Positions 1-11,716 of a stretch of DNA of 11,716 nucleotides are shown piece by piece; positions within the stretch are counted from its first letter, which is position 1; each line of letters starts with the position of its first letter. The stretch is taken from NCBI GenBank assembly GCA_030430565.1, contig JAUIKS010000004.1, forward strand, positions 461,992-473,707. Direction: 5' to 3'. A program made the translations under genes and the position numbers. The notes beneath the pieces are model-generated. The model did not search any database and was not told the origin of the DNA. It saw only the letters and a list, made by a program, of their open reading frames with translations. Source of the DNA: Polyangia bacterium. Its GTDB lineage: Bacteria > Myxococcota_A > Polyangia > Nannocystales > Nannocystaceae.

Positions 1-1920
1 GGTGCGGGGCTTGAGCCGGGGGAGCATCGCCATCTGGGCGCGGCTCTCGATCTGGAACACGCCCACGGTGTCGGCGCGGCGGCACATCGCGTAGGTCTCG
101 GGATCCTCGGCGGGGATCGTCGCCATCTCGAGCGCCACGCCCTCGTGCTCGCGGATCAGCTCGAGGCAGCCGTGCACGTGGGTGAGCGCGCCGAGGCCGA
201 GCAGGTCGACCTTAAACAGCCCGAGGTCCTCGACGTCGTTCTTGTCCCACTGGATCACGGTGCGCCCCGGCATCGCGGCGGGCTCGATCGGCACGAGCGT
301 GTCGACCGGCTCGGCGCCGATCAGGAAGCCGCCGGGGTGGGTCGCGGTGTGCCGCGGGAAGCCGAGCAGCTCGGCGGTCAGGCGGAGGAAGTGCTCGACG
401 CGCGCGCGGCTGTCTGAACCGCCATGTTGTTTTTGATCGCGGCCCTCGGGGTCGAGCAGGCCGGCCTCCGCGAGCGCGTCGGGGCGCAGCTCGCCGCCGT
501 AGCCGTCGTGCAGCCGCGCGGCGCGGTCGAGCGCGGCCGCCGGGATCTCGAGGACCTTGCCGACCTCGCGGATCGCCGAGCGCGGGCGGTAGCGGATGAC
601 GGTGCTGACCATCGCCGCGTGACGTCGTCCGTAGCGCCGGTAGACGAACTGGATGACCTCCTCGCGCCGCTGGTGCTCGATGTCGAGGTCGATGTCGGGG
701 GGCTCGGCGCGCTCGCGGCTGATGAAGCGCTCGAACAGCAGGTCCATGCGCACCGGGTCGATCGCGGTGATCCCGAGGCAGTAGCAGACCGCGGAGTTGG
801 CCGCGCTGCCGCGGCCCTGGCAGAGGATGCCCTCGCGCCGGCAGAACTGGACGATCTCCCACATCGTCAGGAAGTAGCCGCCGTAGTCGAGCTCGCGGAT
901 CAAGGCGAACTCGCGCTCGAGCTGGGCCATGACGTCGCCCGGGATGTCGCCGCCGTAGCGGACGCGCGCGCCCTCGAGGGTCAGCGCGCGCAGCCGGCCG
1001 GCGCTGACGCTGGCGTCGCCACCTGCGTCCTCGGGCAGGTCGCTGGCGGGGTAGCGGTAGCGCAGCTGGTCGAGCGTGAACTCGCAGCGCGCGGCGATCT
1101 CGAGGGTGCGCGCGAGCGCCTCGGGGTCGTCGGCGAACAGCGTGCGCATGGCGGCGGGCGACTTGAGGTCGTGCTCGGCGTTCCCGCGGATCGCGTCGCC
1201 GGCGGCGCTGAGCGTTCGGCCGCGGCGGATGCAGCTCAGGACGTCCTGCAGCGGGCGGCGGGCGGCGTCGTGGTAGAGGACCTCGACGCCGGCGACCACG
1301 GGCACGCCGAGGCGCGCCGCGGCGGCTCGCAGCTGGCGCTCGCGGGAGCGCTCGCGGGCGGCTTGGTGACGCGCGCACAGGGCGTAGAGCGCCGGCGGTC
1401 GGTTCGCGGGCTCGCGCTCGCGCTGGGACGAGGCGAGCGCGGCGAGCAGCTCGGGGTCGCGGCACAGCGTGATCAGCCCGGGGGCGCGCGTCGTCGCCAT
1501 GACGTCGCCGAGGCTGACGCGGGACTGGCCCTTGGGGGAGCGCAGGCGCCCGCGCGAGAGCAGCTGACAGAGGCGGCCGTAGCCGGCGCGGGTCTCGGCG
1601 AGCAGGACGAGCTCGCGGTCGTCGTCGCTGGCCAGCGGCGCGGGCGGGTCGTGATCTACATCTGGCTGAAGAAGCAGGTTGTCGGCGGCGCCGGGATCCG
1701 CGGGCGCGCCGACGGTGACCTGGGCGCCGAGCAGCAGCGTGAGGCCGAGCTCGCGGGCGCGGACGTGGGCGCGCACGAGGCCGTGCACGCCGTCGCGGTC
1801 GGTGATCGCGAGCGCGGGCAGGCCGAACTCGTGGGCGCGCTCGACCAGCTCCTCGGGGTGCGAGGCGCCCTCGAGGAAGGAGAAGTTGGTCTTGACCCAC
1901 AGGGGCGCGTAGCTGGTCAC
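1..1920 (-). CDS. dnaE2: Error-prone DNA polymerase III alpha-subunit paralogue DnaE2 (ImuC), N-terminal ~640 codons. The gene continues beyond the window start, so the C-terminal part is missing.
   Basis: The minus-strand translation from GTG at 1918-1920 reads TSYAPLWVKTNFSFLEGASHPEELVERAHEFGLPALAITDRDGVHGLVRAHVRARELGL, the conserved PHP-domain N-terminus of DnaE2. At the window edge the same frame reads VFQIESRAQMAMLPRLKPRT, the FQxESRG-like Pol III alpha motif, so the frame is continuous over ~1.9 kb. It sits directly downstream of imuA-imuB, the classic cassette order. It is absent from the ORF track because no stop falls inside the window. Confidence 0.85.
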   Translation of the reverse strand, partial: MTSYAPLWVKTNFSFLEGASHPEELVERAHEFGLPALAITDRDGVHGLVRAHVRARELGLTLLLGAQVTVGAPADPGAADNLLLQPDVDHDPPAPLASDDDRELVLLAETRAGYGRLCQLLSRGRLRSPKGQSRVSLGDVMATTRAPGLITLCRDPELLAALASSQREREPANRPPALYALCARHQAARERSRERQLRAAAARLGVPVVAGVEVLYHDAARRPLQDVLSCIRRGRTLSAAGDAIRGNAEHDLKSPAAMRTLFADDPEALARTLEIAARCEFTLDQLRYRYPASDLPEDAGGDASVSAGRLRALTLEGARVRYGGDIPGDVMAQLEREFALIRELDYGGYFLTMWEIVQFCRREGILCQGRGSAANSAVCYCLGITAIDPVRMDLLFERFISRERAEPPDIDLDIEHQRREEVIQFVYRRYGRRHAAMVSTVIRYRPRSAIREVGKVLEIPAAALDRAARLHDGYGGELRPDALAEAGLLDPEGRDQKQHGGSDSRARVEHFLRLTAELLGFPRHTATHPGGFLIGAEPVDTLVPIEPAAMPGRTVIQWDKNDVEDLGLFKVDLLGLGALTHVHGCLELIREHEGVALEMATIPAEDPETYAMCRRADTVGVFQIESRAQMAMLPRLKPRT

Positions 1921-1953
1921 GACGGTCGCTCGCTTCGCGATAAGTAGAGGTGC

Positions 1954-3663
1954 TCAATCGACCAGGCCGTGCCAGAACCAGCGGTCGCGCGGGCGGTCGT
2001 AGAAGATCCACATCAGCGCGCCGTGGGCGGTCTCGGCGTAGTAGTAGTCGCGCTCGACGGTCCGCGCCCACCAGCCGCCGCTGACGCGGAACGGGCCGTG
2101 CAGGCGGCGCACGGTCGTCATCTTGGGCGCGTATGTCTTCGGGGACTTGTCGTCACCCGCGGCCGGAGCGGCGCTCGCGGGGCGCTCGCGGGGCGCTCGC
2201 TGCGGGACGCGCCAGGGGAGATGATCCTCGGGCGGCGAGGGCAGGGGCAGCGGGCGCGCGAACACCCGGCGCAGCAGCGGCGCGCCCTGCAGCGGATCGT
2301 GATCGTTGGCCGGCCAGGGATCGGGGGGCGGCGCCGGGCGAGCGCGCGGCAGCCGAGTCGTCTGCTCCCAGGTGAAGCGCGCCTCGGGGAGGTGGGCGTC
2401 GCGCAGGCGCGCGCGCGTCACGGCGTGGTCGCCGAAGGCCGCGCGCAGACGGGCGAGCGCGGCCGCGGCGGCCTCGGGATCGCGGCGCGGACGTTGCCCC
2501 GGGAGCAGGTTGACCTGGGCGCCGCGTCGCCGCTCGCGCTCGCCGGTCAAGGTCATCGCGCGCACCGGCGCCGGGAAGCCGCCGCGGCTCGCTCGCTCGC
2601 CGAGGCGCAGGCGGATCAGGTCCACGAGCTTGAGGAGGTCGCGCGTGGGGGCGGCGGGCGTGATCTCGAGGCGCGAGGGATCGTGCGGGCGATCGGGATC
2701 GCCGGGCGCGCCGTCGAGTGACTCGATGGCCATGTCGAATTCGAAGTCGATCGTCAGCGATCGCAGCGCGTCCTGCTGGCTCTCGCCGCGCGCGTCGAGG
2801 CGCGCGAGCAGGGCGGCGAGCGCCTCCTTGAGGATGAAGAGCAGGCGCTCGTGGTGATCGTCGGGCGGATCGACGACGCGGCTCAGCACGAGGGGATCGA
2901 GCAGCTCGGCCGGGGTCAGCGGGTCCCAGGTCTGCCCGTTGGCGCGGGCGTGCAGCTCGGCGGCGGCGCGCCCGAAGCGGAGCCGCAGCGCGGGCGCGGG
3001 CAGGGCGAGGAAGTCGCCGAGCGTGCGCACGCCGAGCGGCGCCAGGGTCTCGCGCAGGCGCGGCGGGAAGTCCTCGCGCGGCAGGCTGGCGAGCGGCACG
3101 CGGGCGAGCGCGGCGCGCTCCTGCGCGGGGCCCTCGAGCAGCCAGACGTCCTGCTCGGCTCGCGGCGCGCGGCTGCGGTCCTGCGCGACCGCGAGGCTGG
3201 CGAAGCGCGAGAAGCCGATGACGATCGTCGCCGAGAGTTCGAGCTCGCGGACAACCTCGAGGGTCTGGCGCCCCCAGGTCTCGAGATCGCCGAACAGCCG
3301 CTCGAGGCCGCCCGGGTCGAGCCAGAAGACGCCGGGTCGCGCCGCGCTGGGCTCGACCCGCGGCGAGCAGCGCTGCAGCGCGCTGAGGAGCTGCGCGTGG
3401 GCGTCGGCGAGCTCGTCGGCGGAGACCGTGGCGGCGCGCAGCTCCGGGACCAGGCTGCAGGCGGCGGCGTAGCGCGCCCCGGGGTGCACGCGGGCGCGAC
3501 GCGCCGCCGCGTTGGCCCAGCGGACCACGCCCTGGGGACCCAGCTTGTCGATCACGACCGCCGGGCGCCCGCGCCACGCCGGGCGTCGCTTCAGCGCGAG
3601 CTGGAGCGGCAGGGCGGGCAGCGCGAGGCAGGCGACGCGCGTGACCTGGGCGGCGGTCGGCAT
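1954..3663 (-). CDS. imuB: ImuB, the Y-family (DinB-like) polymerase paralogue of the imuA-imuB-dnaE2 mutagenesis cassette.
   Basis: This is the track ORF 1954..3924 on the minus strand. It has Y-family features: N-terminal VACLALPALPLQLALKRRP...PAVVI, PGVFWLDPGGLERLFG, and the C-terminal RDYYYAE...WIFYD...WFWHGLVD module typical of ImuB. I place the start at ATG 3661-3663 (MPTAAQVTRVACLALP...). The upstream 87 codons of the track ORF are low-complexity (ATATATATTNTTTNTTST), overlap imuA in another frame and cover a 12-bp microrepeat. The stop is TGA at 1954-1956. Confidence 0.8.
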   Translation of the reverse strand: MPTAAQVTRVACLALPALPLQLALKRRPAWRGRPAVVIDKLGPQGVVRWANAAARRARVHPGARYAAACSLVPELRAATVSADELADAHAQLLSALQRCSPRVEPSAARPGVFWLDPGGLERLFGDLETWGRQTLEVVRELELSATIVIGFSRFASLAVAQDRSRAPRAEQDVWLLEGPAQERAALARVPLASLPREDFPPRLRETLAPLGVRTLGDFLALPAPALRLRFGRAAAELHARANGQTWDPLTPAELLDPLVLSRVVDPPDDHHERLLFILKEALAALLARLDARGESQQDALRSLTIDFEFDMAIESLDGAPGDPDRPHDPSRLEITPAAPTRDLLKLVDLIRLRLGERASRGGFPAPVRAMTLTGERERRRGAQVNLLPGQRPRRDPEAAAAALARLRAAFGDHAVTRARLRDAHLPEARFTWEQTTRLPRARPAPPPDPWPANDHDPLQGAPLLRRVFARPLPLPSPPEDHLPWRVPQRAPRERPASAAPAAGDDKSPKTYAPKMTTVRRLHGPFRVSGGWWARTVERDYYYAETAHGALMWIFYDRPRDRWFWHGLVD

Positions 3664-3696
3664 CGGCGCGCGGGCGGGCGTCAGCGGGATCGTCGA

Positions 3697-3750
3697 GGTG
3701 GTGTTCGTGGTGGTGTTCGTGGTGGCGGTCGCGGTGGCGGTCGCGGTGGC
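3697..3750. repeat. 12-bp tandem microrepeat between the imuA stop and the imuB start: GGTGGTGTTCGT x2, then GGTGGCGGTCGC x2, then a partial copy. On the mRNA it is ACC/ACG-rich.
   Basis: Read directly from the sequence. Four to five contiguous 12-mers with two sub-variants. Confidence 0.8.
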
Positions 3751-3754
3751 GCGC

Positions 3755-4555
3755 TCAGGCGAGACCCCAGGGGCCGCGGCGGCGCTCGGGCGTGAGCGTC
3801 GGCGCCTCGCCCGACTTGTCCTTGAGGACACGCGGCGAGATTTCGAAGCGAAGCCCGCGCGCGTCGGTCTTGTGCACGCGTCGGGGCGCGACGCGGAGGT
3901 TGACGAGGGGTCCAGCGGATTCATGGTGATCGGCTTTCTCCGTCAGGATCACGAGGCGGCTGCTGTGCTGCCGCGCGAGGGTCAGCAGGCGCGCCTGCCA
4001 GGTCGCGCCGCGCCGGCTGCTGCGGGGCGGGGGCGCCTGGCACATGTCGACGACGACGAGGCCGTACGCGCCCGAGCGCAGCAGCAGCTCGGCCGCCCTC
4101 GCCAGCTCGAGCGCCTGAGTCGAGCGCCGCGGCCTGGGGACGTGGACGACGATCAGCGACTCGAGGTCGACGCCCGCCTCCGCCAGGTCGGGCGGGAACA
4201 GCGAGCCGCCGGCGGGCTGCACCCAGGCCGTGGTCTCGAGCTCGCGCTGCGCCTCGCGGACGATCGCGACGGCGGTGCTCATCTTGGCGGAGCCGCTGTC
4301 GCCGGAGAGCTCGACGAGCCGCCCTGGTCGACAGAGCGCGCCGAGGCCGGCGGGCGCGGGCGCGCCGGCTTCGTCCTGCTCTCCCGACCCGGTCTTTTGG
4401 TTCAGATCCTCGGCGACGGCGAGCTTGGCGAGCGCGCGTTTTGTTGTGGTGTTTTCGCGGCGTTCCTCCGCGTGTTGAAGACCGTTCTCCTCCGGCGGCG
4501 AATCCGTCCAAAGTGCGTTGTAATGCGCGTTAGCGCCCAATTTGAGCCCCACCAT
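3755..4555 (-). CDS. imuA: ImuA, the RecA/SulA-fold protein of the SOS mutagenesis cassette.
   Basis: This is the track ORF 3755..4558 on the minus strand. The sequence GRLVELSGDSGSAKMSTAVAIVREAQ...WVQPAGGSLFPPDLAEAGVDLESLIVVHVP...ALELARAAELLLRSGAYGLVVVD is the characteristic ImuA core with a degenerate RecA-like P-loop. It lies immediately upstream of imuB. The start is ATG 4553-4555 (GTG 4556-4558 is also possible) and is preceded by a G-rich SD-like GGGGGGATGGG. The stop is TGA at 3755-3757. Confidence 0.75.
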   Translation of the reverse strand: MVGLKLGANAHYNALWTDSPPEENGLQHAEERRENTTTKRALAKLAVAEDLNQKTGSGEQDEAGAPAPAGLGALCRPGRLVELSGDSGSAKMSTAVAIVREAQRELETTAWVQPAGGSLFPPDLAEAGVDLESLIVVHVPRPRRSTQALELARAAELLLRSGAYGLVVVDMCQAPPPRSSRRGATWQARLLTLARQHSSRLVILTEKADHHESAGPLVNLRVAPRRVHKTDARGLRFEISPRVLKDKSGEAPTLTPERRRGPWGLA

Positions 4556-4578
4556 CACCCCATCCCCCCGACCTGTTG

Positions 4579-4607
4579 AGCATACTGAACTTCAAATCAG
4601 TATCCAA
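4579..4607 (-). promoter_or_regulatory. Putative sigma70-type promoter for the imuA-imuB-dnaE2 operon. On the minus strand, -35 is TTGGAT (plus 4602-4607), then a 17-nt spacer, then -10 TATGCT (plus 4579-4584). The palindrome fills the spacer.
   Basis: The hexamers match consensus 4/6 and 4/6 with optimal 17-nt spacing, in an AT-rich island unusual for this genome. The predicted TSS lies ~13-16 nt upstream of the start codon, just before the SD-like G-run. The operator overlapping -35/-10 is the canonical SOS arrangement. Confidence 0.35.
4583..4602. promoter_or_regulatory. Candidate LexA (SOS) operator: 20-bp palindrome TACTGAACTTCAAATCAGTA of the CTG-N10-CAG type, ~25 nt upstream of the imuA start.
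   Basis: Six-bp perfect inverted arms TACTGA/TCAGTA with the same 5+10+5 geometry as the E. coli SOS box TACTG(TA)5CAGTA. The reverse complement contains GTTCAG, as in reported myxobacterial LexA boxes. It sits in front of a cassette that is LexA-regulated in other bacteria. Confidence 0.45.
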
Positions 4608-4790
4608 GTATCTGTAAGAAAAATTTCAATTAATTCACGCACGGACTCGCGCCGCGGCGCGGCTTCGCGCGCGTCCGGGCGCTATCGCGCCGCGCGGTTT
4701 CGAGAGCGCGCGGGGGCGCGAAAACGTCCCGCGATCAGAGGTGCTTGATTACACATGTTTCTATCAACATGTCTGTTCAAGCTAGTCGTT

Positions 4791-4829
4791 CCTCGCGCGC
4801 GAGGGAGGGCGCGAGCCGCCCGCGCGGGC
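4791..4829 (-). terminator. Two GC-rich self-complementary elements immediately after the multi-kinase stop codon: CCTCGCGCGCGAGG at 4791-4804 and GCCCGCGCGGGC at 4818-4829. Possible weak or U-tract-less terminator.
   Basis: Both perfect palindromes are read from the sequence. No convincing U-tract follows on the minus strand, hence the low confidence. Confidence 0.25.
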
Positions 4830-4834
4830 GCGCG

Positions 4835-7800
4835 TCAGACGGCCTGCTGGGCGCGCGGCGGATCGCTGTCGGGGAGCACCACCGTGAAGGTCGAGCCGCG
4901 CCCCTGCTGGCTCTCGACGTGGATCGAGCCGCCGAGCAGCGCGCACAGCCGCTGGCTGATCGCGAGGCCGAGGCCGGCGCCCCCGTACTCGCGCGTCGTC
5001 GACATGTCCGCCTGCGAGAACTCCGTGAACAGCCGGCCGACGTCGTCGGGCGACATCCCGATCCCCGAGTCGCGGATCTCGCAGGCGAGCTGCTTGCCGC
5101 CCTGCTTCGCGTGCCAGCGGACGTCGAGCTCGATCACGCCGCGGTGCGTGAACTTGGCCGCGTTGCCGAGCACGGCCCGCAGCACCCGGAGCACGCTCGC
5201 GCGATCGGAGTACAGCGCGCCGATGCTCGGCGGGCAGGTCACCTGGAGGTCGTTGTTGTTGCGCTCCAGCTCGTCGGCGACCGAGGCGACGAGCTCGTCG
5301 ACCAAGGGCCGAATCTCGAAGCGCGCGCGGTGCAGCTCGAGCTTGCCCGACTCGAGCTTGGCGAGGTCGAGGACGTCGCTGATGAGCTCGAGCAGCCGCT
5401 TGCCGGCGTCGCCGATGCGCGCGAGGTCCGGCAGCGCGTCCGGGGCCCGCGTCGCGAGGTCCTCGGCGAGGATCTCGCTGTAGCCGATGACCGCGTTCAG
5501 CGGGGTCCGCAGCTCGTGGCTCATGTGGGTCAAGAACGCGCTCTTGAGCCGGCTCGCCTCGAGCGCCTCGTCCCGGGTCGCGCGCATGAAGCGGTTCATC
5601 CGCGAGCTCTCCAGCGCGATCGCGATGTGGTTACACATCGCGACGAGCAGCCGTCGATCCTCCGGCGCGAACAGCCCGCGGACGAGTCGATTGTCGAGGT
5701 AGACGACGCCGATCAGGCGGTCCTGAACCAGCAGCGGCGCGCAGACGATGCTCTTGAGCCCGAGCGCCTCGACGCTCTCGGAGCCCGTGAACTCCGAGTC
5801 GTCGCTGCCGCCCACGACCTTCACCGCGCGCGTCGCGACGACGTGCTCGATCACCGTCGTGCAGTAGCGGTCGTCGCGGTCGAGGTCGCGCCCGCGGCTG
5901 TCGCGGCCCGCGATGCGTCGAAGGTACCCGCCGCCGCGATCGCTCGACTCATCCTCGCTGACGAACAGCAGCGCGCGCTCGGCCCCCATCGCCGAGATCA
6001 GCGCGTCGAGCAACCTACGCGCCTGCGCGCCCACGCCCCCGCTCCCCCGCGCGACGGCGGTGCGGCTGACCTCGAGCAGCGCGTCGAAGCAGCGGTCGAG
6101 CGCGCCGGCGCCCCCGGACGATCGCTGACGCAGCAGCTGGCCCGGCGCGGGCGCGACCTCCTCCGACGTGACGCCCCCGTCTCTGACGCCGCCGCCGCTC
6201 GTGAGGCTCGACGAGCTGAGCCCGATGTCACCTCGCACCTGCAGCGCTGGATCGGCGAGCTCAAACTCCGCCCGGATCCGTCGGGCGCGCGGCGCCCAGC
6301 CTTCATGGTGCGCGAGCTGCAGCGCCGCGCCGGCCTCTCTCCGCGCGGCGGCGGCGTGACCCATCGTCGCAAGCAGGCGCGCGCGCTCGCGGTGAACCTC
6401 GAACTGCGCCCACGGGCTGTCGATGACGAAGGCCGTGCTCTGGGCTCGCCCGAGGAGCTCGACCGCGCGCGCGAAGGCGTCGCTCGCCGCCCCCTCCCGC
6501 GCGCCGTCGAGGCGCAGACGGGCCGCCACGAGCACGCGCTGCTGACACCGCAGCGCGGGCAGGCCGCGAGCGTTGGGTCCCAGGTCCTCCAGCGCGCGGT
6601 CGAGCTCCTCGCGCAGCTGCACCCGCTCTTGGTTGCGCGCCCGGTCGCCGGCGCGATCGAGCGCGGCCTCTAGCAGCGTGAGCCGCTGTCGCGCGCGCAG
6701 GAGCCACATCGGGCGCAGCAGCAGCGGCGTACGCTCGACCGGCAGCCCCGCCGACTCGAGCGCGCGGATCAACACGCCCTCGAGCTCCAGCGCGCCCGTG
6801 AACGCGCCATCCTCGACGAACACGAGCGCGCGCATCAGCGAGTGGAGCGCGCGCAGCGTTCGCCCGACGTCGTGGTCCACGAGCCGCTCGTGCGCGAGCT
6901 CGAAGCGCTCGCGGCTCTCCGCGCTGCGCCCGAGCAGCGCCTCGCAGGCCGCGACCATGCTCGCCACGCCCGCCCGCGGCGGGCGCGTGCGCGTGCGGAG
7001 CCCCGCGCCCGCGCAGCGTCGCCCCGCGCGGAGCATGAAAGACCTGGCCCTGCGTACATGTCCGCGCAGGATCAGGTTCCAGCCGAGCGTCACGTAGCCC
7101 TCGCTCGCGAGCCAGGGATCCACGCGCGCGCCGTAGTCCGCCAGCGCGCGCTCGACCTGGCTCGCGGCGCCGAGCGGGTCTCCGGCGTGCTCCCGCAGCA
7201 GCGCGCCCGTCAGCAGGCTCTCGCCCACGAGCGCGGGATCATCGAGTCGCGCCGCGCCGACCTGGGCGCGCTCGTTGAGCTCCTCCGCGCGGCCGATGTA
7301 GCCGTGGGCCGCCCACGCGCGCGCGGCCGCGTTCTCGAGGCGGACGCGGTCGGGCCCGTCCCCGAGCGCGCGGGCGCTCGCCAGGGCGCGCTTGATCCGG
7401 CTCAGCGCCCGATCGAGGTCGAGCTCCGCGCGGTCGAGCTCGCTCGCCCAGCGACGCAGCGAGACCCCCGCCACGAGCCCCTCACGGCGCTCTCCCGCGG
7501 CCCCGAGGCGGCTCGCGGCCGCCCGCTCGACGGAGCGTCGCAGCCGGCCCACCGCGCCTCGGAGACCCGCGCTCTCGCCCGCGCGCTCCTCCGGCTCCAG
7601 CTCCTCCAGGCCGCGCTTGACGACCGCGCGCGCGGCCGCGACATCGGGCGCGGCCGCGTGCACGCTCGCCAGCTTCGCGCACACCTTCGCGCGCGCCGCC
7701 GGCCGCTCGCGGCGCTCGAGCAGATGGCGGAAGTGCGCCTCGGCCTGGCGGTAGCGATAGGTCCTTTGGCACACGTCCCCGAGGGTCTCGTAGAGGTCTA

Positions 7801-10198
7801 GATCTTCGCCGAGCCCGCCGATCATCCGGGCCTGCAGCGCGGCGGCGAGGAACTGGTACGCGTGCTCCGGCGCGTGCGTTCGCAGGGCCAGCGCGCCGGC
7901 GGCTCGGTTGGTCTCGAAGGCGCGACGCGCCGTCTCACGATCAAGCGCCTCGGCGTAGTGTCGGGCCCGCGCGAACAGCTGCGCCGCCGTCAGCGTCGGG
8001 ACCTCGTCGAGCGTCAGCGCGATCCGTAGGTGGCACGCGCGGCGCTGCGCGCCCGAGAGCTCCGCCAGCAGCGCCGCGCGGATGCTCGGGTGCACGAAGC
8101 TGTACTCGTCGCCGTGCACGCGCTCGATCACGCCGACCGCGTTGGCGTTCTCGAACGCGCGCACGACCTTGTCTGCGTCGCGCTCGATGATCGAGGGCAG
8201 GTGGGCGAGCGAGAAGCGCGGCCCGACCACCGCCGCCCAGCGCAGCACCTCGCGATCGCTGGCCGCGATATCGCTGAGCCTGTGCAGCACCAGCGCCGCC
8301 ATATCGCCTGGCAGCCCGAGCTCTGGGAGCCGCGCGGCGTCGAGCTCCCATCGCCCCCAGGACGGTCTGAGGACGCCGGCGGAGAGCATCGTGCGGACGC
8401 ACTCGACGATCGTCTCGGGCTGCTCGCCGCTGCGCGCCAGGACCGCGCGAACGATCGACTCGTCGACCGGCGCGCGACCCAGGGAGTCGACGATCACCCG
8501 ACGCGCGGCCGAGAGCGCCAGGGGCCGCAGCAATATCTCGGCGGGCAGCTCGGCGTCGCGCGGGCGCGGCGGGTCGCTCGCGCGCGACGACTGTCGCGTG
8601 GTGCAGACCAGCAGCAGCGGCGGCGGGCTCCGGTCGTCGAGTCGACGCCGCAGCGCGGTCACGACCTCGCGGCTCGCCTCGTCGAGCCACTGGACATCCT
8701 CGAGCACGAGCAGGACCGGACCGCCGATCTCGGAGAGCGCATGCAGCACGCGCTCGAGCGCGAAGACCTGCTCCGCGTTGTGTCCGTCCCGCGTGCCCGC
8801 GCTCGCGGTCGAGACCCCGAGCAGCCCCGCGAGCCGCGGCGAGAGCTTGGCGAGCGCCGCGCGGCTGTCGCCCGCCGCGGTGCGGATGAGGCCGCGGCGC
8901 GCGACGATCGCCGAGCGCCCTCCCGCCGAGTCGCTCATGAAGCCGACGAGCGCCTGCACGAGCGGCGCGAACGCGAGGTTGAGCTCCTCGTCACAGCGCC
9001 CGCGCAGGACGATCGCGCGGGTCGACGCGCCCGCGCGCTCGATCAGGCCGGCGCACAGCGGGTGGGCCCCGGCGCCGGGCGGCCCCGTGAGCACCACAAA
9101 CGATCCGCGCCCCTCGAGCGCCGCTCGCCAGCGATCGAGCAGCCCGACCAGCTCTGGCTCCCGCGCGCGCAGGAGCGGGCTGAGGTCGTCACCCCGCGGT
9201 GCCGAGAGCGCCCCGAGCGGCGGATCGACGCGCTCCTCGACGAGCTCCGCGGGCGCGGGCGCGTCGTCGTCGCGCGCGCTCGGATACACGTCGAGCTGGC
9301 GCGTGAGCGCGTCGACGCGATCGAGATCCGCGAGCAGCGACGCGGCCGCCTGGTAGCGCTCCTCCGGGTCCTTGCGCAGCAACCTCATGATGATCGCGGC
9401 GAGGCCCGAGGGGATCGCCGGGTTGCGCGCGCGCGGGTCCTCGGGGCGCACGGCCGCGTGCATGTGCAGCAGGCTCCCGACATCCTCCGCGACGAAGGGC
9501 GGTCGCCCCGTCGCGCACTCGTACAGCAGCGCGCCGAGGGCGTACAGATCGGCGCGACCGTCGACCGGTCGACGCAGGATCCCGGTCTGCTCCGGCGCGC
9601 TGTAGGTGAACGTTCCGACAGGTCGGCTGCGGGCCTTCGAATCACCCCAGCCGCTCGGATCCCGCGACCACAGCTCGGCGAAGCCAAAGTCGATCAGCTT
9701 GACCGCGCCGCCGGTGTCGATCAGCACGTTGCTCGGCTTGAGATCTCGGTGGACGAGCCCGCGTCGCCACACGTGGTCGAGGACCTCGGCGACGGCGTGC
9801 CCGATCGCGATCACGCGCGGGCAGGGCATCGCGCCGCCGCGAGCCGCGAGCGCGGACGCGAGCGAGCGCCCCTCGATGAATTCCATGACGATGTACGGCC
9901 GCCCGACGTGCTCGCCGACCTCGTAGATCTTCGCGAGGCCTCGGTGATTCAAGCTCGCCAGCAGCGCGGCCTCGCGAACGACGCGCTGCCGCAGCGCCTC
10001 CGCCGAGACGTGCGGGGCCGGCGTGAACAGCTTGACCGCGACGAGCTGCGGACCGGCCTCGTCGTCAGCGTCGCTGACTTCGCGCTCGACCCGTCGGCGG
10101 CCGCGGAACACGAGGCTCGCCGCGCCCTGTCCGACCGAGCGCTCGAGCTCTATCCCGGGGATGTCGAGATGTGGCTGCATGTGCAACGAACGACCCAC
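4835..10198 (-). CDS. Cytoplasmic multi-domain signalling protein, 1787 aa. Domain order: Ser/Thr protein kinase, STAND/AAA_16-like NTPase, TPR/MalT-like helical region, GAF, histidine kinase (HisKA + HATPase_c). This is a hybrid eukaryotic-like kinase and two-component sensor kinase (a multi-sensor signal transduction multi-kinase).
   Basis: Track ORF 4835..10198. I read all the motifs from the translation. It starts at GTG 10198, with an alternative ATG at 10180. No hydrophobic transmembrane segments are evident. Confidence 0.85.
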   Translation of the reverse strand: MGRSLHMQPHLDIPGIELERSVGQGAASLVFRGRRRVEREVSDADDEAGPQLVAVKLFTPAPHVSAEALRQRVVREAALLASLNHRGLAKIYEVGEHVGRPYIVMEFIEGRSLASALAARGGAMPCPRVIAIGHAVAEVLDHVWRRGLVHRDLKPSNVLIDTGGAVKLIDFGFAELWSRDPSGWGDSKARSRPVGTFTYSAPEQTGILRRPVDGRADLYALGALLYECATGRPPFVAEDVGSLLHMHAAVRPEDPRARNPAIPSGLAAIIMRLLRKDPEERYQAAASLLADLDRVDALTRQLDVYPSARDDDAPAPAELVEERVDPPLGALSAPRGDDLSPLLRAREPELVGLLDRWRAALEGRGSFVVLTGPPGAGAHPLCAGLIERAGASTRAIVLRGRCDEELNLAFAPLVQALVGFMSDSAGGRSAIVARRGLIRTAAGDSRAALAKLSPRLAGLLGVSTASAGTRDGHNAEQVFALERVLHALSEIGGPVLLVLEDVQWLDEASREVVTALRRRLDDRSPPPLLLVCTTRQSSRASDPPRPRDAELPAEILLRPLALSAARRVIVDSLGRAPVDESIVRAVLARSGEQPETIVECVRTMLSAGVLRPSWGRWELDAARLPELGLPGDMAALVLHRLSDIAASDREVLRWAAVVGPRFSLAHLPSIIERDADKVVRAFENANAVGVIERVHGDEYSFVHPSIRAALLAELSGAQRRACHLRIALTLDEVPTLTAAQLFARARHYAEALDRETARRAFETNRAAGALALRTHAPEHAYQFLAAALQARMIGGLGEDLDLYETLGDVCQRTYRYRQAEAHFRHLLERRERPAARAKVCAKLASVHAAAPDVAAARAVVKRGLEELEPEERAGESAGLRGAVGRLRRSVERAAASRLGAAGERREGLVAGVSLRRWASELDRAELDLDRALSRIKRALASARALGDGPDRVRLENAAARAWAAHGYIGRAEELNERAQVGAARLDDPALVGESLLTGALLREHAGDPLGAASQVERALADYGARVDPWLASEGYVTLGWNLILRGHVRRARSFMLRAGRRCAGAGLRTRTRPPRAGVASMVAACEALLGRSAESRERFELAHERLVDHDVGRTLRALHSLMRALVFVEDGAFTGALELEGVLIRALESAGLPVERTPLLLRPMWLLRARQRLTLLEAALDRAGDRARNQERVQLREELDRALEDLGPNARGLPALRCQQRVLVAARLRLDGAREGAASDAFARAVELLGRAQSTAFVIDSPWAQFEVHRERARLLATMGHAAAARREAGAALQLAHHEGWAPRARRIRAEFELADPALQVRGDIGLSSSSLTSGGGVRDGGVTSEEVAPAPGQLLRQRSSGGAGALDRCFDALLEVSRTAVARGSGGVGAQARRLLDALISAMGAERALLFVSEDESSDRGGGYLRRIAGRDSRGRDLDRDDRYCTTVIEHVVATRAVKVVGGSDDSEFTGSESVEALGLKSIVCAPLLVQDRLIGVVYLDNRLVRGLFAPEDRRLLVAMCNHIAIALESSRMNRFMRATRDEALEASRLKSAFLTHMSHELRTPLNAVIGYSEILAEDLATRAPDALPDLARIGDAGKRLLELISDVLDLAKLESGKLELHRARFEIRPLVDELVASVADELERNNNDLQVTCPPSIGALYSDRASVLRVLRAVLGNAAKFTHRGVIELDVRWHAKQGGKQLACEIRDSGIGMSPDDVGRLFTEFSQADMSTTREYGGAGLGLAISQRLCALLGGSIHVESQQGRGSTFTVVLPDSDPPRAQQAV
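4859..5566 (-). other. Histidine kinase core: HisKA dimerisation/phosphoacceptor domain (~5354-5566) plus HATPase_c (~4859-5236).
   Basis: H-box FLTHMSHELRTPLNAVIGYSEIL, with the phosphoacceptor His codon at ~5516-5518. N-box VLRAVLGNAAKFT. G1 box IRDSGIGM. F-like box LFTEF. G2 box GGAGLGLAIS. All are intact. Confidence 0.85.
5603..6106 (-). other. GAF domain (residues ~1365-1532).
   Basis: ...LKSIVCAPLLVQDRLIGVVYLDNRLVRGLFAPEDRRLLVAMCNHIAIALESS is a typical GAF C-terminal beta-strand and helix signature, directly preceding the HisKA helix. Confidence 0.65.
6239..8578 (-). other. Long alpha-helical, Ala/Arg/Leu-rich region (residues ~541-1320) of the TPR/MalT-like type that follows AAA_16 modules. 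It ends in a Ser/Gly-rich flexible linker.
   Basis: Composition and heptad-like helical periodicity. The position matches the helical sensor or scaffold arm of PknK/MalT-like STAND proteins. No specific repeats could be assigned without profile searches. Confidence 0.45.
8579..9151 (-). other. STAND/AAA_16-like NTPase module (residues ~350-540) with a degenerate Walker A and an intact Walker B.
   Basis: The P-loop position reads GPPGAGAHP (residues 372-380; the DNA at ~9059-9085 translates cleanly to this). That is GxxGxG followed by Ala-His instead of Lys-Ser/Thr. Walker B is hhhhD/E-like: PVLLVLEDVQWLDEAS. Confidence 0.7.
9323..10153 (-). other. Hanks-type Ser/Thr protein kinase catalytic domain (residues ~16-292 of the 1787-aa protein).
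   Basis: Gly-rich loop VGQGAASLVF, VAVK (beta3 Lys56), HRDLKPSN catalytic loop, DFG and SAPE motifs are all intact. This predicts an active kinase. Confidence 0.85.
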
Positions 10199-10505
10199 GC
10201 GGGGTCAAGCGTAACAAAGGCGCGGGGTCGTCGGGGGGGCGGCGCGACTCCGAGCCGGCCCCGCTTCGCCGCTCCTGTGCACAGCCCCCCACGATGACGC
10301 ACGCGCACATACACCGATTCCAATCCGTAGAGTCTTCGTCCTGCGGCGCGTGCGTGCATTGACCGCGGCGAGCGACGAACGACGATCGACCGGCGCGCGT
10401 CCTCGCGCGCTCGCGCGGGTTGGCCCCCGCGAGCGGACCTGAGCCGGCGCCCGCGAACTAACGCGAACACGATGGCGGGAGCCGTCGCGCGCTGGTTCGA
10501 AACAC

Positions 10506-10535
10506 GAAGCGCCGCCCGGAGAGGGCGGCGCTTCG
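10506..10535 (-). terminator. Probable intrinsic terminator hairpin for the upstream (acidic repeat protein) gene: 12-bp perfect stem GAAGCGCCGCCC / GGGCGGCGCTTC with a 6-nt loop GGAGAG.
   Basis: Perfect inverted repeat read from the sequence, ~26 nt downstream of the TGA at 10561-10563. On the minus-strand RNA it is followed by GUGUUUCGAACC, a short U-run. It separates the acidic gene from the kinase gene, which then needs its own promoter in 10199-10505. Confidence 0.5.
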
Positions 10536-10560
10536 AGGTCTCAGGCTCGGAGGCGACCGA

Positions 10561-11716
10561 TCAGTCGTCGGAGTCTCCGTCACCCGCCGGCGGCTCGGTC
10601 CCGAACACGAGTCGGTACGCGAAGGAGCCCGCCACGAGCCGGCTCGCCGCCTTCGCCAAGACCGCGACTTGATCGGCGGCGGCGGCGTCCTTCGACGCCG
10701 TGCCGATCATCCCGAGGATATGGCGGTACGCGTTCAACAACGTCTCGCGCGTTGAGTCCGCCGGAATCTCGACCGGCGTTTCCGGGTGGCTCGGCTCGTA
10801 GGCCTCGTCGGCAGGAGCTTCCTCGCCGCCACCTTCGTCCGCTGCGTCGTCGCCCGCAGCCTCGTCACCCGCATCAGCGTCGTCGCCGGCATCGTCCCCG
10901 GCTTCGTCGTCACCGGCGGCTTCGTCACCGCTGTCAGCGTCGTCGCCGGCGGCTTCGTCACCGGTGGCTTCGTCACCGCTGTCAGCATCATCGCCGGCGG
11001 CTTCGTCCCCGGCGGCGTCATCACCCGCATCAGCGTCATCGCCGGCGGCTTCGTCACCGGCGTCCGCATCGTCACCAGCAGCGTCGTCGCCCGCGTCCGC
11101 GTCGTCGACCGCGTCCGCGTCGTCACCGGCGGCTTCGTCGCCGGCGTCCGCATCGTCACCCGCCGCGTCGTCGCCCGCGTTCGCGACATCACCAGCGGCT
11201 TCGTCGCCGGCGTCCGCGTCGTCACCCGCCGCGTCGTCGCCCGCGTTCGCGTCATCACCAGCGACTTCGTCGCCGGCGTCCGCATCGTCGTCACCCGCGT
11301 CGTCACCCGCGTCGTCACCGGCGGCTTCGTCACCGGCGTCCGCGTCGTCGCCGGCAGCGTCGTCGCCCGCGTCAACATCGTCACCGGCGGCTTCGTCATC
11401 GCCGTCCGCGTCATCGCCAGCGGCGTCGTCGCCCGCGTCGTCACCGGCGGCTTCGTCACCGTCTGCATCGTCACCGGCAGCGTCGTCACCGGCGTCCGCA
11501 GCATCGCCGGCAGCGTCGTCACCGGCGGCTTCGTCACCGGCGTCCGCATCGTCGCCGGCAGCGTCGTCACCGGCGGCGTCGTCGCCTGCGGCTTCGTCAC
11601 CGGCGTCCGCATCGTCGCCGGCAGCGTTGTCGCCCGCGTCGGCGTCGTCGCCTGGGGCTTCGTCACCGGCGTCCGCGTCGTCGCCGGCAGCGTCGTCACC
11701 TGCGTCGGCGACGACG
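10561..11716 (-). CDS. 3' part of a gene for a highly acidic Asp/Ala/Gly/Glu tandem-repeat protein. The 16-aa units resemble AGDDADAGDEAAGDDA. A non-repetitive C-terminal tail follows: ...EEAPADEAYEPSHPETPVEIPADSTRETLLNAYRHILGMIGTASKDAAAADQVAVLAKAASRLVAGSFAYRLVFGTEPPAGDGDSDD*. The N-terminus lies beyond the window end.
   Basis: The minus-strand frame ending at TGA 10561-10563 is open to the window edge with no in-frame stop. Its tail has protein-like composition and GC3 of ~85%. The terminator hairpin follows 26 nt after this stop. The track does not list it because it has no in-window start. The track's 10734..11699 minus ORF is a different frame of the same repeat (Thr/Pro/Arg-rich, ending in RKRRSRFRRTQRARRC) and is the competing interpretation. 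Confidence 0.5.
   Translation of the reverse strand, partial: VVADAGDDAAGDDADAGDEAPGDDADAGDNAAGDDADAGDEAAGDDAAGDDAAGDDADAGDEAAGDDAAGDAADAGDDAAGDDADGDEAAGDDAGDDAAGDDADGDDEAAGDDVDAGDDAAGDDADAGDEAAGDDAGDDAGDDDADAGDEVAGDDANAGDDAAGDDADAGDEAAGDVANAGDDAAGDDADAGDEAAGDDADAVDDADAGDDAAGDDADAGDEAAGDDADAGDDAAGDEAAGDDADSGDEATGDEAAGDDADSGDEAAGDDEAGDDAGDDADAGDEAAGDDAADEGGGEEAPADEAYEPSHPETPVEIPADSTRETLLNAYRHILGMIGTASKDAAAADQVAVLAKAASRLVAGSFAYRLVFGTEPPAGDGDSDD
10840..11716. repeat. Imperfect 48-bp tandem repeat array, at least 18 units, continuing past the window end. The unit resembles GTCGTCACCGGCGGCTTCGTCACCGGCGTCCGCATCGTCGCCGGCAGC.
   Basis: Read directly from the sequence. The period is a multiple of 3, so all six frames are nearly stop-free across it. 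Confidence 0.75.

Follow-up and report, generated by a model that had tools for sequence, protein, structure and literature searches.

What does a myxobacterium gain from a single polypeptide that carries both a Ser/Thr kinase and a histidine kinase, and does it matter that the gene lies beside the SOS mutasome genes? Both questions are raised by an 11,716-nt stretch of a Polyangia bacterium genome (contig JAUIKS010000004.1; hereafter the window, to which all coordinates refer), in which a minus-strand gene at 4835 to 10198 encodes a 1,787-residue protein that an earlier, sequence-only reading had described as a two-output signalling hub built around a STAND NTPase. We find that its domain order identifies the protein as an HstK-type 'dual kinase', a member of the HstK / 'multi-sensor multi-kinase' family and not a new kind of protein, and we think it rather probable that it works as an HstK-type chassis with a histidine kinase output, in which the GAF domain and a helical solenoid would do the gating, the Ser/Thr kinase would be constant machinery and the STAND core a static scaffold.

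Gene model and domain architecture

The gene is a single open reading frame (ORF) with a GTG start and no internal stops, and an identical public protein (P0001) has 1,781 residues, having been annotated from the ATG of codon 7, 18 nt further downstream. The G+C content of the window is 72-77% (74% for the genome), and long chance ORFs are frequent on both strands; this one is a real coding sequence under selection and not a chance ORF, since the ratio of nonsynonymous to synonymous substitution rates (dN/dS) is 0.25-0.50 in every domain when compared with an orthologue. Logan contig L001 matches window 845-11071 (10.2 kb) at 100% identity and so gives no hint of a frameshift or an assembly error, the very flaw that the sequence-only reading had named as grounds for abandoning its interpretation.

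4835..10198, minus strand: whole gene, 1,787 codons; stop codon at 4835-4837; public annotation begins at the ATG at 10180
9299..10153, minus strand: Hanks-type Ser/Thr kinase domain, residues 16-300, from Pfam Pkinase, motifs and orthologue comparison
4868..5206, minus strand: histidine kinase catalytic ATP-binding domain, residues 1665-1777, from Pfam HATPase_c, with N, G1, F and G2 boxes intact

The domains and their order are as first described, each scoring above its Pfam gathering threshold: Pkinase (residues 18-285, E = 3e-39), AAA_16 (344-531, E = 4.5e-16, 60 bits), GAF (1393-1529, E = 2e-13), HisKA (1552-1618, E = 3e-18) and HATPase_c (1665-1777, E = 8e-25). No NCBIfam model reaches its cut-off; the best, TIGR03903 (TOMM kinase/cyclase), scores 211 bits where 706 are required.

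All catalytic motifs of both kinases can be located, and by this test both active sites are intact, as had been proposed. The Ser/Thr kinase contains a G-loop (GQGAAS), VAVK with K56, E76, HRDLKPSN at 150-157 (D152 and N157; the catalytic Asp had been placed at D151), DFG at 170-172 (D170), activation-loop residues T196/T198, and APE at 201-203. The C-terminal output carries the boxes of a class-I histidine kinase, to which we assign it on that basis: H1561 in HELRTP, N-box residue N1679, the G1 box DSGIG at 1710-1714, an F-box at 1724-1727 and the G2 box GGAGLG at 1739-1744. This core is nearest to those of the hybrid-type kinases BarA, TorS and LuxQ but lacks a fused receiver, and its HELRT motif is compatible with a bifunctional kinase/phosphatase. 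A transmembrane-like stretch is absent, as expected from the earlier reading (maximum Kyte-Doolittle value of 1.56 over 19 residues), and the hydropathy profile marks the protein as soluble and cytoplasmic.

Relatives and interchangeable outputs

The HstK / 'multi-sensor multi-kinase' family has been known since 2001. Its defining features are all found here, namely an N-terminal Hanks kinase, a GAF domain between the two kinases, and C-terminal HisKA and HATPase_c domains. Such architectures have been described as 'dual protein kinases', the HstK family or cbSTKIII (PMC2176072, PMC1262709), in keeping with the earlier remark that annotated examples exist in cyanobacteria and myxobacteria, with next to no characterisation.

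The sole close orthologue, from the metagenome-assembled genome 'Myxococcales bacterium HK-STAS-MYXO-17' (locus L002), has 1,822 residues (maximal ORF), is 73% identical and carries the same Pfam set, whereas the next-best relatives are merely 33-35% identical. The dN/dS values against this orthologue indicate purifying selection in every part of the protein, with the two catalytic domains the most constrained:

Ser/Thr kinase: dN/dS 0.26 (81% identity)
STAND core: dN/dS 0.39
Solenoid: dN/dS 0.44
GAF: dN/dS 0.50
Histidine kinase (dimerisation and histidine phosphotransfer (DHp) plus catalytic ATP-binding domains, residues 1535-1787): dN/dS 0.25 (87% identity)

A whole-protein search returned 3,496 matches at E ≤ 1e-10 among 8,000 candidates scored, and the middle region (residues 320-1395) by itself matched 4,976 clusters (50% identity) at E ≤ 1e-10, 373 of them at E ≤ 1e-30. 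The best 150 middle-region matches are mostly proteins of 1,650-1,850 residues, in which the match starts near 280-310 and ends near 1,230-1,290; the named taxa among the best relatives are Myxococcota, Actinomycetota, Chloroflexota and Eremiobacterota. When the C-terminal outputs of the best 120 full-length relatives were counted by eye, GGDEF was found in ~89, HisKA/HATPase in ~18 and SpoIIE/PP2C in 8, with none recognised in 5 (a cruder regular-expression count of the same outputs gave 87 GGDEF). Segment-wise BLAST reveals that the kinase, the STAND core plus arm and the GAF domain are each equally close to GGDEF- or PP2C-type and to histidine kinase-type relatives, and that only the last ~250 residues discriminate between them. 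Sisters with a GGDEF or PP2C output, e.g., P0010 of Corallococcus exercitus, P0034 of Persicimonas caeni and the 'diguanylate cyclases' of Actinoplanes and Cryptosporangium, share the same chassis at the identities seen for the histidine kinase type (kinase, 44-50%; STAND plus arm, 28-33%; GAF, 42-49%), but their output is cyclic di-GMP synthesis or protein dephosphorylation as opposed to His-Asp phosphotransfer here. On these comparisons the ~1,500-residue kinase-STAND-GAF front end is a conserved chassis with a swappable C-terminal output, and because the enzyme swaps among histidine kinase, GGDEF and PP2C, the histidine kinase would be the variable output and the Ser/Thr kinase the constant machinery. 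An exchange of the histidine kinase for a cyclase is already on record for this family (PMC2853384).

This pattern bears on the claim that the protein is a bifurcating hub, in which a single sensor feeds two independent outputs, the Ser/Thr kinase acting on external substrates and the histidine kinase on a response regulator. The finding of two active sites that are intact and equally constrained agrees with such a hub, as does the retention of kinase and chassis by some relatives without a recognised C-terminal output (P0059, P0081, P0082 and P0115), and a terminal domain of a STAND protein is its effector, PknK being listed as a Ser/Thr-kinase member of that class (PMC4381067). A kinase that is kept as the C-terminal enzyme varies is, however, what is expected of processing machinery, and domain deletions in the fungal kinase Chk1 suggest an intramolecular role (PMC9069115). 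The part of the claim that concerns the active sites holds up, but two outputs are not the only way to read them; we consider the hub possible though somewhat doubtful, and it is not mutually exclusive with an intramolecular role for the Ser/Thr kinase.

The cyanobacterial dual kinases (Anabaena HstK/Alr2258 and Pkn41/Pkn42; 'multi-sensor signal transduction multi-kinase') have in common with the present protein a Hanks kinase, at least one GAF domain and HisKA plus HATPase_c, all on one soluble polypeptide of ~1,800-2,000 residues. A plasmid gene of Leptolyngbya boryana (WP_017291650.1, 2,006 residues) encodes Pkinase, AAA_16, GAF, PAS, HisKA, HATPase and receiver domains in order, and thus shares our Pfam order, AAA_16 included, at ~29% identity; tblastn to this pLBX gene, which was the gene compared and is not HstK itself, aligns residues 130-1776 at 28.5-28.7% identity and 46% coverage. 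PAS domains and a fused receiver are frequent additions in cyanobacterial members; the present protein has neither, and its Walker A motif is degenerate. The AAA_16 score is 151 bits in the Leptolyngbya protein and 60 bits here.

A STAND core with a degenerate P-loop

An AlphaFold2 model of residues 320-1395 (monomer; predicted local distance difference test (pLDDT), 84; predicted template modelling score, 0.75) contains a five-stranded P-loop-type domain, followed by a helical domain and a winged-helix domain, then ~30 helices that form a solenoid to about residue 1312, and disorder at residues 1322-1367. As modelled, the succession of nucleotide-binding, helical and winged-helix domains (NBD-HD-WHD) ahead of a C-terminal helical-repeat sensor is the fold that defines the MalT clade of STAND proteins. 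The top Foldseek match of the model is 6MFV_A, the STAND protein PH0952 with its TPR sensor (E = 4.5e-11), whereas a sequence search of residues 301-1399 against all PDB chains returns nothing at E ≤ 1, and the link of this region to MalT and PH0952 came from fold comparison only. A Pfam scan of the arm (residues 701-1323) at E ≤ 1 matches neither TPR nor TPR_CHK1, because the repeats are too divergent for profile hidden Markov models. The TPR_CHK1 model weakly matches the cyanobacterial relative.

8054..9181, minus strand: STAND nucleotide-binding oligomerisation domain (NBD-HD-WHD), residues ~340-715
6263..8053, minus strand: all-helical arm and sensor solenoid, residues ~716-1312, MalT-domain-III-like, ~30 helices
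9062..9085, minus strand: degenerate Walker A loop GPPGAGAH, residues 372-379, read from the motif; GSPGAGGQ in the orthologue

What sets the core apart is its P-loop. In the Walker A motif, Ala stands in place of the Lys and His in place of the Ser/Thr, so that GPPGAGAH departs from the GxxxxGK[S/T] pattern of the STAND clade, while GxxGxGK[S/T] is found in 112 of 120 relatives, with 5 others lacking the Lys (among GGDEF-type relatives, P0016, P0034 and P0035 do so) and 3 more lacking a recognisable motif. In a 54-sequence alignment, conservation of the Lys column is 90% or higher. Since the orthologue reads GSPGAGGQ, the two critical positions appear to drift freely (AH vs GQ). The Walker B motif LLVLED is retained at residues 496-501, and H703, which by its position alone would be the winged-helix histidine, is invariant in the 54-sequence alignment.

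PknK of M. tuberculosis has, to our knowledge, neither a GAF domain nor a histidine kinase. It is listed as a Ser/Thr kinase in the MalT-related bacterial STAND subfamily (PMC4381067). In characterised STAND proteins, ADP/ATP exchange in the nucleotide pocket is the switch that allows multimerisation, and E. coli MalT and PH0952 (PDB 6MFV) are transcription factors switched in this way, with intact P-loops (PMC6468293, PMC4381067); the present protein differs from both in lacking a DNA-binding domain as well as the Walker A Lys and Ser/Thr, and in having two kinases and a GAF domain. Because those two residues are gone, the STAND core is probably not an ADP/ATP-driven oligomerisation switch. 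It is probably nucleotide-blind, and loss of the P-loop predicts that inducer- and ATP-dependent multimerisation is absent or altered. The working STAND NTPase implied by the sequence-only reading therefore finds no support in the motif, which lacks both residues in the sole close orthologue as well.

A degenerate P-loop might instead mark the onset of pseudogenisation in a decaying relic without regulated function. A Walker A motif that is gone, and that differs between orthologues as unconstrained positions do, fits such decay, and so does an AAA_16 score of 60 bits where relatives reach 77-151 bits. Yet the reading frame is unbroken in both genomes, the STAND core is under purifying selection and the two kinases are held at a dN/dS of ~0.25, Walker B and the invariant His are kept, and the other family members without the Lys or the motif argue that the chassis tolerates the loss. 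We regard decay as very unlikely.

Antiviral sensors are found among the bacterial STAND proteins that have helical-repeat sensors, and an Avs-like anti-phage protein with kinase effectors is another conceivable identity. PADLOC reports strong matches to its PD-T4-6, mad6 and MkoA models, but these are confined to the generic kinase domain (residues 16-318), with none on the STAND part, and we reject them as artefacts of that domain. The outputs of the family are signalling enzymes (histidine kinase, GGDEF, PP2C) and not toxic effectors, and the surroundings contain no defence or mobile-element genes, which leaves a defence role with hardly any credence.

The GAF domain, the linker and their probable coupling to the histidine kinase

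6098..6235, minus strand: disordered Ser/Thr-rich linker between solenoid and GAF, residues ~1322-1367 (pLDDT <50)
5609..6046, minus strand: GAF domain, residues ~1385-1530, from Pfam GAF (E = 2e-13) and the AlphaFold2 model
5345..5659, minus strand: last GAF helix running into DHp helix 1 (H1561), then DHp helix 2 (to residue 1617), from AlphaFold2 helices H147-217 and H219-250 and Pfam HisKA

A second AlphaFold2 model (me88f61209e56; residues 1368-1787, monomer, pLDDT 83) shows a GAF fold, then an unbroken 71-residue helix (residues 1514-1584) bearing H1561, then DHp helix 2 and the ATP-binding domain. GAF and PAS sensors usually act on histidine kinases through coaxial helices of this kind. 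Because one continuous helix joins the GAF domain to the phospho-accepting helix in this model, the GAF domain most likely gates the histidine kinase. The linker that precedes it is a candidate autophosphorylation target: in the aligned segment (residues ~1313-1367), Ser and Thr make up 18% of residues here, and the family median is 22.5% as compared with 9% in whole proteins.

We find no candidate partner for the histidine kinase close by. A tblastn search with four receiver domains detects none in the window, nor any in L002, the orthologous 23-kb locus, while the same four queries matched receivers in three unrelated loci as a positive control, and none was found adjoining the relatives P0003, P0004 and P0005. 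In two-component terms these searches define the protein as an orphan kinase, consistent with the original observation that no receiver lies nearby; orphan two-component genes are common in myxobacteria.

Proposed mechanism

In the arrangement that we favour, a cytoplasmic ligand would bind the GAF domain, possibly with a second on the solenoid, and would alter the register of the GAF-DHp helix. This change would toggle autophosphorylation of H1561 and probably a phosphatase activity of the HExxT type too, and the phosphoryl group would pass to an orphan response regulator encoded elsewhere. The STAND core would act as a static scaffold or docking platform, with dimerisation supplied by the DHp four-helix bundle. 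Because it is constant across all output types, the Ser/Thr kinase is most simply seen as regulatory machinery. Its most likely role would be autophosphorylation in cis or in trans, e.g., on the Ser/Thr-rich linker before the GAF domain, by which output gain would be set, and external substrates may exist as well. In Candida albicans Chk1, deletion of the Ser/Thr-kinase domain mimics the null mutant and further deletion of the GAF domain partly restores function (PMC9069115), genetics that would agree with a kinase that relieves GAF-mediated inhibition in a protein of the same domain order, albeit a eukaryotic one.

A more specific form of this mechanism, which we put forward tentatively and consider rather unlikely, is a self-contained Ser/Thr-to-His relay. 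Here the nucleotide-blind, MalT-derived STAND core would be no more than a rigid platform that positions the Hanks kinase on the linker, and linker phosphorylation, instead of a small-molecule ligand or oligomerisation driven by ATP, would gate the histidine kinase through the GAF-DHp register.

Several points weigh against the favoured arrangement. The functions that we give to the GAF domain, to the solenoid and to the Ser/Thr kinase are inferred throughout. The continuity of the GAF-DHp helix is a prediction, and both AlphaFold2 models are monomeric. Disordered linkers are frequently Ser/Thr-rich in any case, so that the enrichment is weak evidence for phosphorylation. Certain P-loop proteins bind nucleotide despite having no canonical Lys, and the STAND core is under purifying selection (dN/dS 0.39) with Walker B and the invariant His kept, so that it may still bind nucleotide. 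Finally, the N-terminal domain is the effector in the STAND paradigm, in which PknK is listed as a Ser/Thr-kinase member (PMC4381067); by this analogy the Ser/Thr kinase could well act as an output on external substrates.

The SOS mutasome neighbourhood

4559..4834, minus strand: spacer between the kinase gene and imuA, 276 bp, the final ~95 bp nearly invariant between two genomes (imuA promoter/operator region)
10199..10505, minus strand: 5' region of the kinase gene itself, ~300 bp, preceded by the terminator-like hairpin of the upstream gene

Along the minus strand, the order is an acidic-repeat gene, a terminator-like hairpin, the dual kinase gene, the 276-bp spacer, imuA (RecA-like), imuB (IMS) and dnaE2 (PHP / pol III alpha), so that the kinase gene does adjoin imuA-imuB-dnaE2 on the same strand, as first reported. 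Scans of both flanking spacers reveal neither a consensus sigma-70 promoter nor an intrinsic terminator.

Just 5' of imuA, a perfect palindrome, TACTGA-N8-TCAGTA, at 4583-4602 lies inside an invariant block (~4556-4650), while the other parts of the spacer have diverged. CTG-N10-CAG is the spacing of LexA boxes, and the palindrome is likely a LexA operator that, together with a promoter, serves imuA-imuB-dnaE2; because ~95 bp are nearly invariant and hold this CTG-N10-CAG palindrome, imuA would have its own promoter and operator. A second 20-bp motif, ACATGT-N8-ACATGT (equivalent to the palindrome CATGT-N8-ACATG), occurs once in the spacer of the window (4753-4772) and in four copies with at most one mismatch in L002 (6694-6713, 9606-9625, 15460-15479 and 15534-15553). 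All copies lie in AT-rich intergenic islands, with chance expectations of 0.01 matches in the window and 0.03 in L002, and the motif looks like the operator of some regulator or a second LexA-type box. Neither motif was found in the other 82 loci examined, nor upstream of the lexA gene near homologue P0003.

Might the kinase be tied to the mutasome, co-transcribed or co-regulated with imuA-imuB-dnaE2 and controlling or sensing damage-induced mutagenesis? The genes share a strand, imuA follows after 276 bp with no recognisable intrinsic terminator between, which would permit read-through, and the gene order is repeated in the related genome; the spacer ahead of imuA contains ACATGT-N8-ACATGT in both genomes, and in L002 the motif also lies upstream of the kinase gene. 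M. xanthus imuAB, moreover, has regulators still to be identified (PMC12288472). But L002 is collinear on both sides and its protein is 73% identical, so that synteny is expected by descent; the next-closest histidine kinase-type relatives (P0003, P0004 and P0005, 33-35% identity) lie in unrelated contexts; imuA appears to have its own promoter and operator; and in the window no ACATGT-N8-ACATGT copy lies upstream of the kinase gene. Linkage to imuA-imuB-dnaE2 recurs in L002 and fails in three more distant relatives, the number at which synteny was sampled, as a contig scan with the protein mostly gave unrelated Ser/Thr kinases that match the kinase domain alone. The adjacency is probably coincidental, in line with the caution expressed in the sequence-only reading, and we hold a functional tie to the mutasome to be improbable. 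For the window, this means an orphan sensor kinase whose proximity to the mutasome is not to be over-interpreted.

Other features of these loci are recorded here for completeness. The upstream gene (10561-11716, minus strand) runs off the window and codes for over 380 residues of degenerate repeats rich in Asp, Ala and Gly (...AGDDADAGDEAAGDD...), after which comes a short conserved domain at the C-terminus; Pfam gives no match, the repeat DNA is highly self-similar, and an orthologue is present in L002 from ~7183. Right after this gene, at 10506-10534, lies a 12-bp perfect G+C-rich hairpin (GAAGCGCCGCCC / GGGCGGCGCTTC, loop TCTCC, then GTGTTTCG), which is kept in L002 with compensating changes and is terminator-like, though under the T-run threshold of the scan. 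At ~3663-3924, the maximal imuB ORF shares 170 nt with imuA and has an N-terminal extension that contains a Thr/Ala/Asn low-complexity run (ATATATATATTNTTTNTTS) built from trinucleotide repeats; because the public gene call starts imuB at ~3663, this extension is probably a repetitive intergenic spacer. On the metagenomic contig of P0003 (L083, 7679-10361 and 12788-13504), the kinase gene overlaps a 512-residue ORF by 4 nt, followed by a 361-residue ORF, both without a Pfam match, and a lexA gene lies 5 kb downstream. In L002, a second, unrelated Ser/Thr kinase gene (3085-6186, 1,033 residues) is found ~4 kb upstream of the acidic-repeat gene; the counterpart region lies outside the window.

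Discussion

Group X hybrid histidine kinases of fungi (Candida albicans Chk1; S. pombe Mak2/Mak3) likewise combine a Ser/Thr-kinase or kinase-related domain, GAF and a histidine kinase in one large cytoplasmic protein, and genetic studies have addressed them as oxidant sensors (PMC6324907, PMC4965123, PMC5383687, PMC9069115). They are eukaryotic and have a fused receiver, which the present protein lacks, placing it outside group X; the likeness considered here is one of domain order.

The family to which the protein belongs is large and biochemically neglected. The one distinctive trait of the present member is its lost P-loop, and it is otherwise ordinary for a myxobacterium. The kinase-STAND-GAF chassis is among the larger uncharacterised signalling families of big-genome bacteria (Myxococcota, Actinomycetota, Chloroflexota and Cyanobacteriota), and is the clearest case of hard-wired Ser/Thr and His phosphorylation; if the Ser/Thr-to-His relay were true, the same rule would hold for the GGDEF and PP2C siblings of the chassis. 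The present member establishes no new principle, yet it offers a natural experiment on the need of a STAND core for nucleotide, because the protein and its orthologue keep every domain under selection despite the loss of the Walker A Lys and Ser/Thr.

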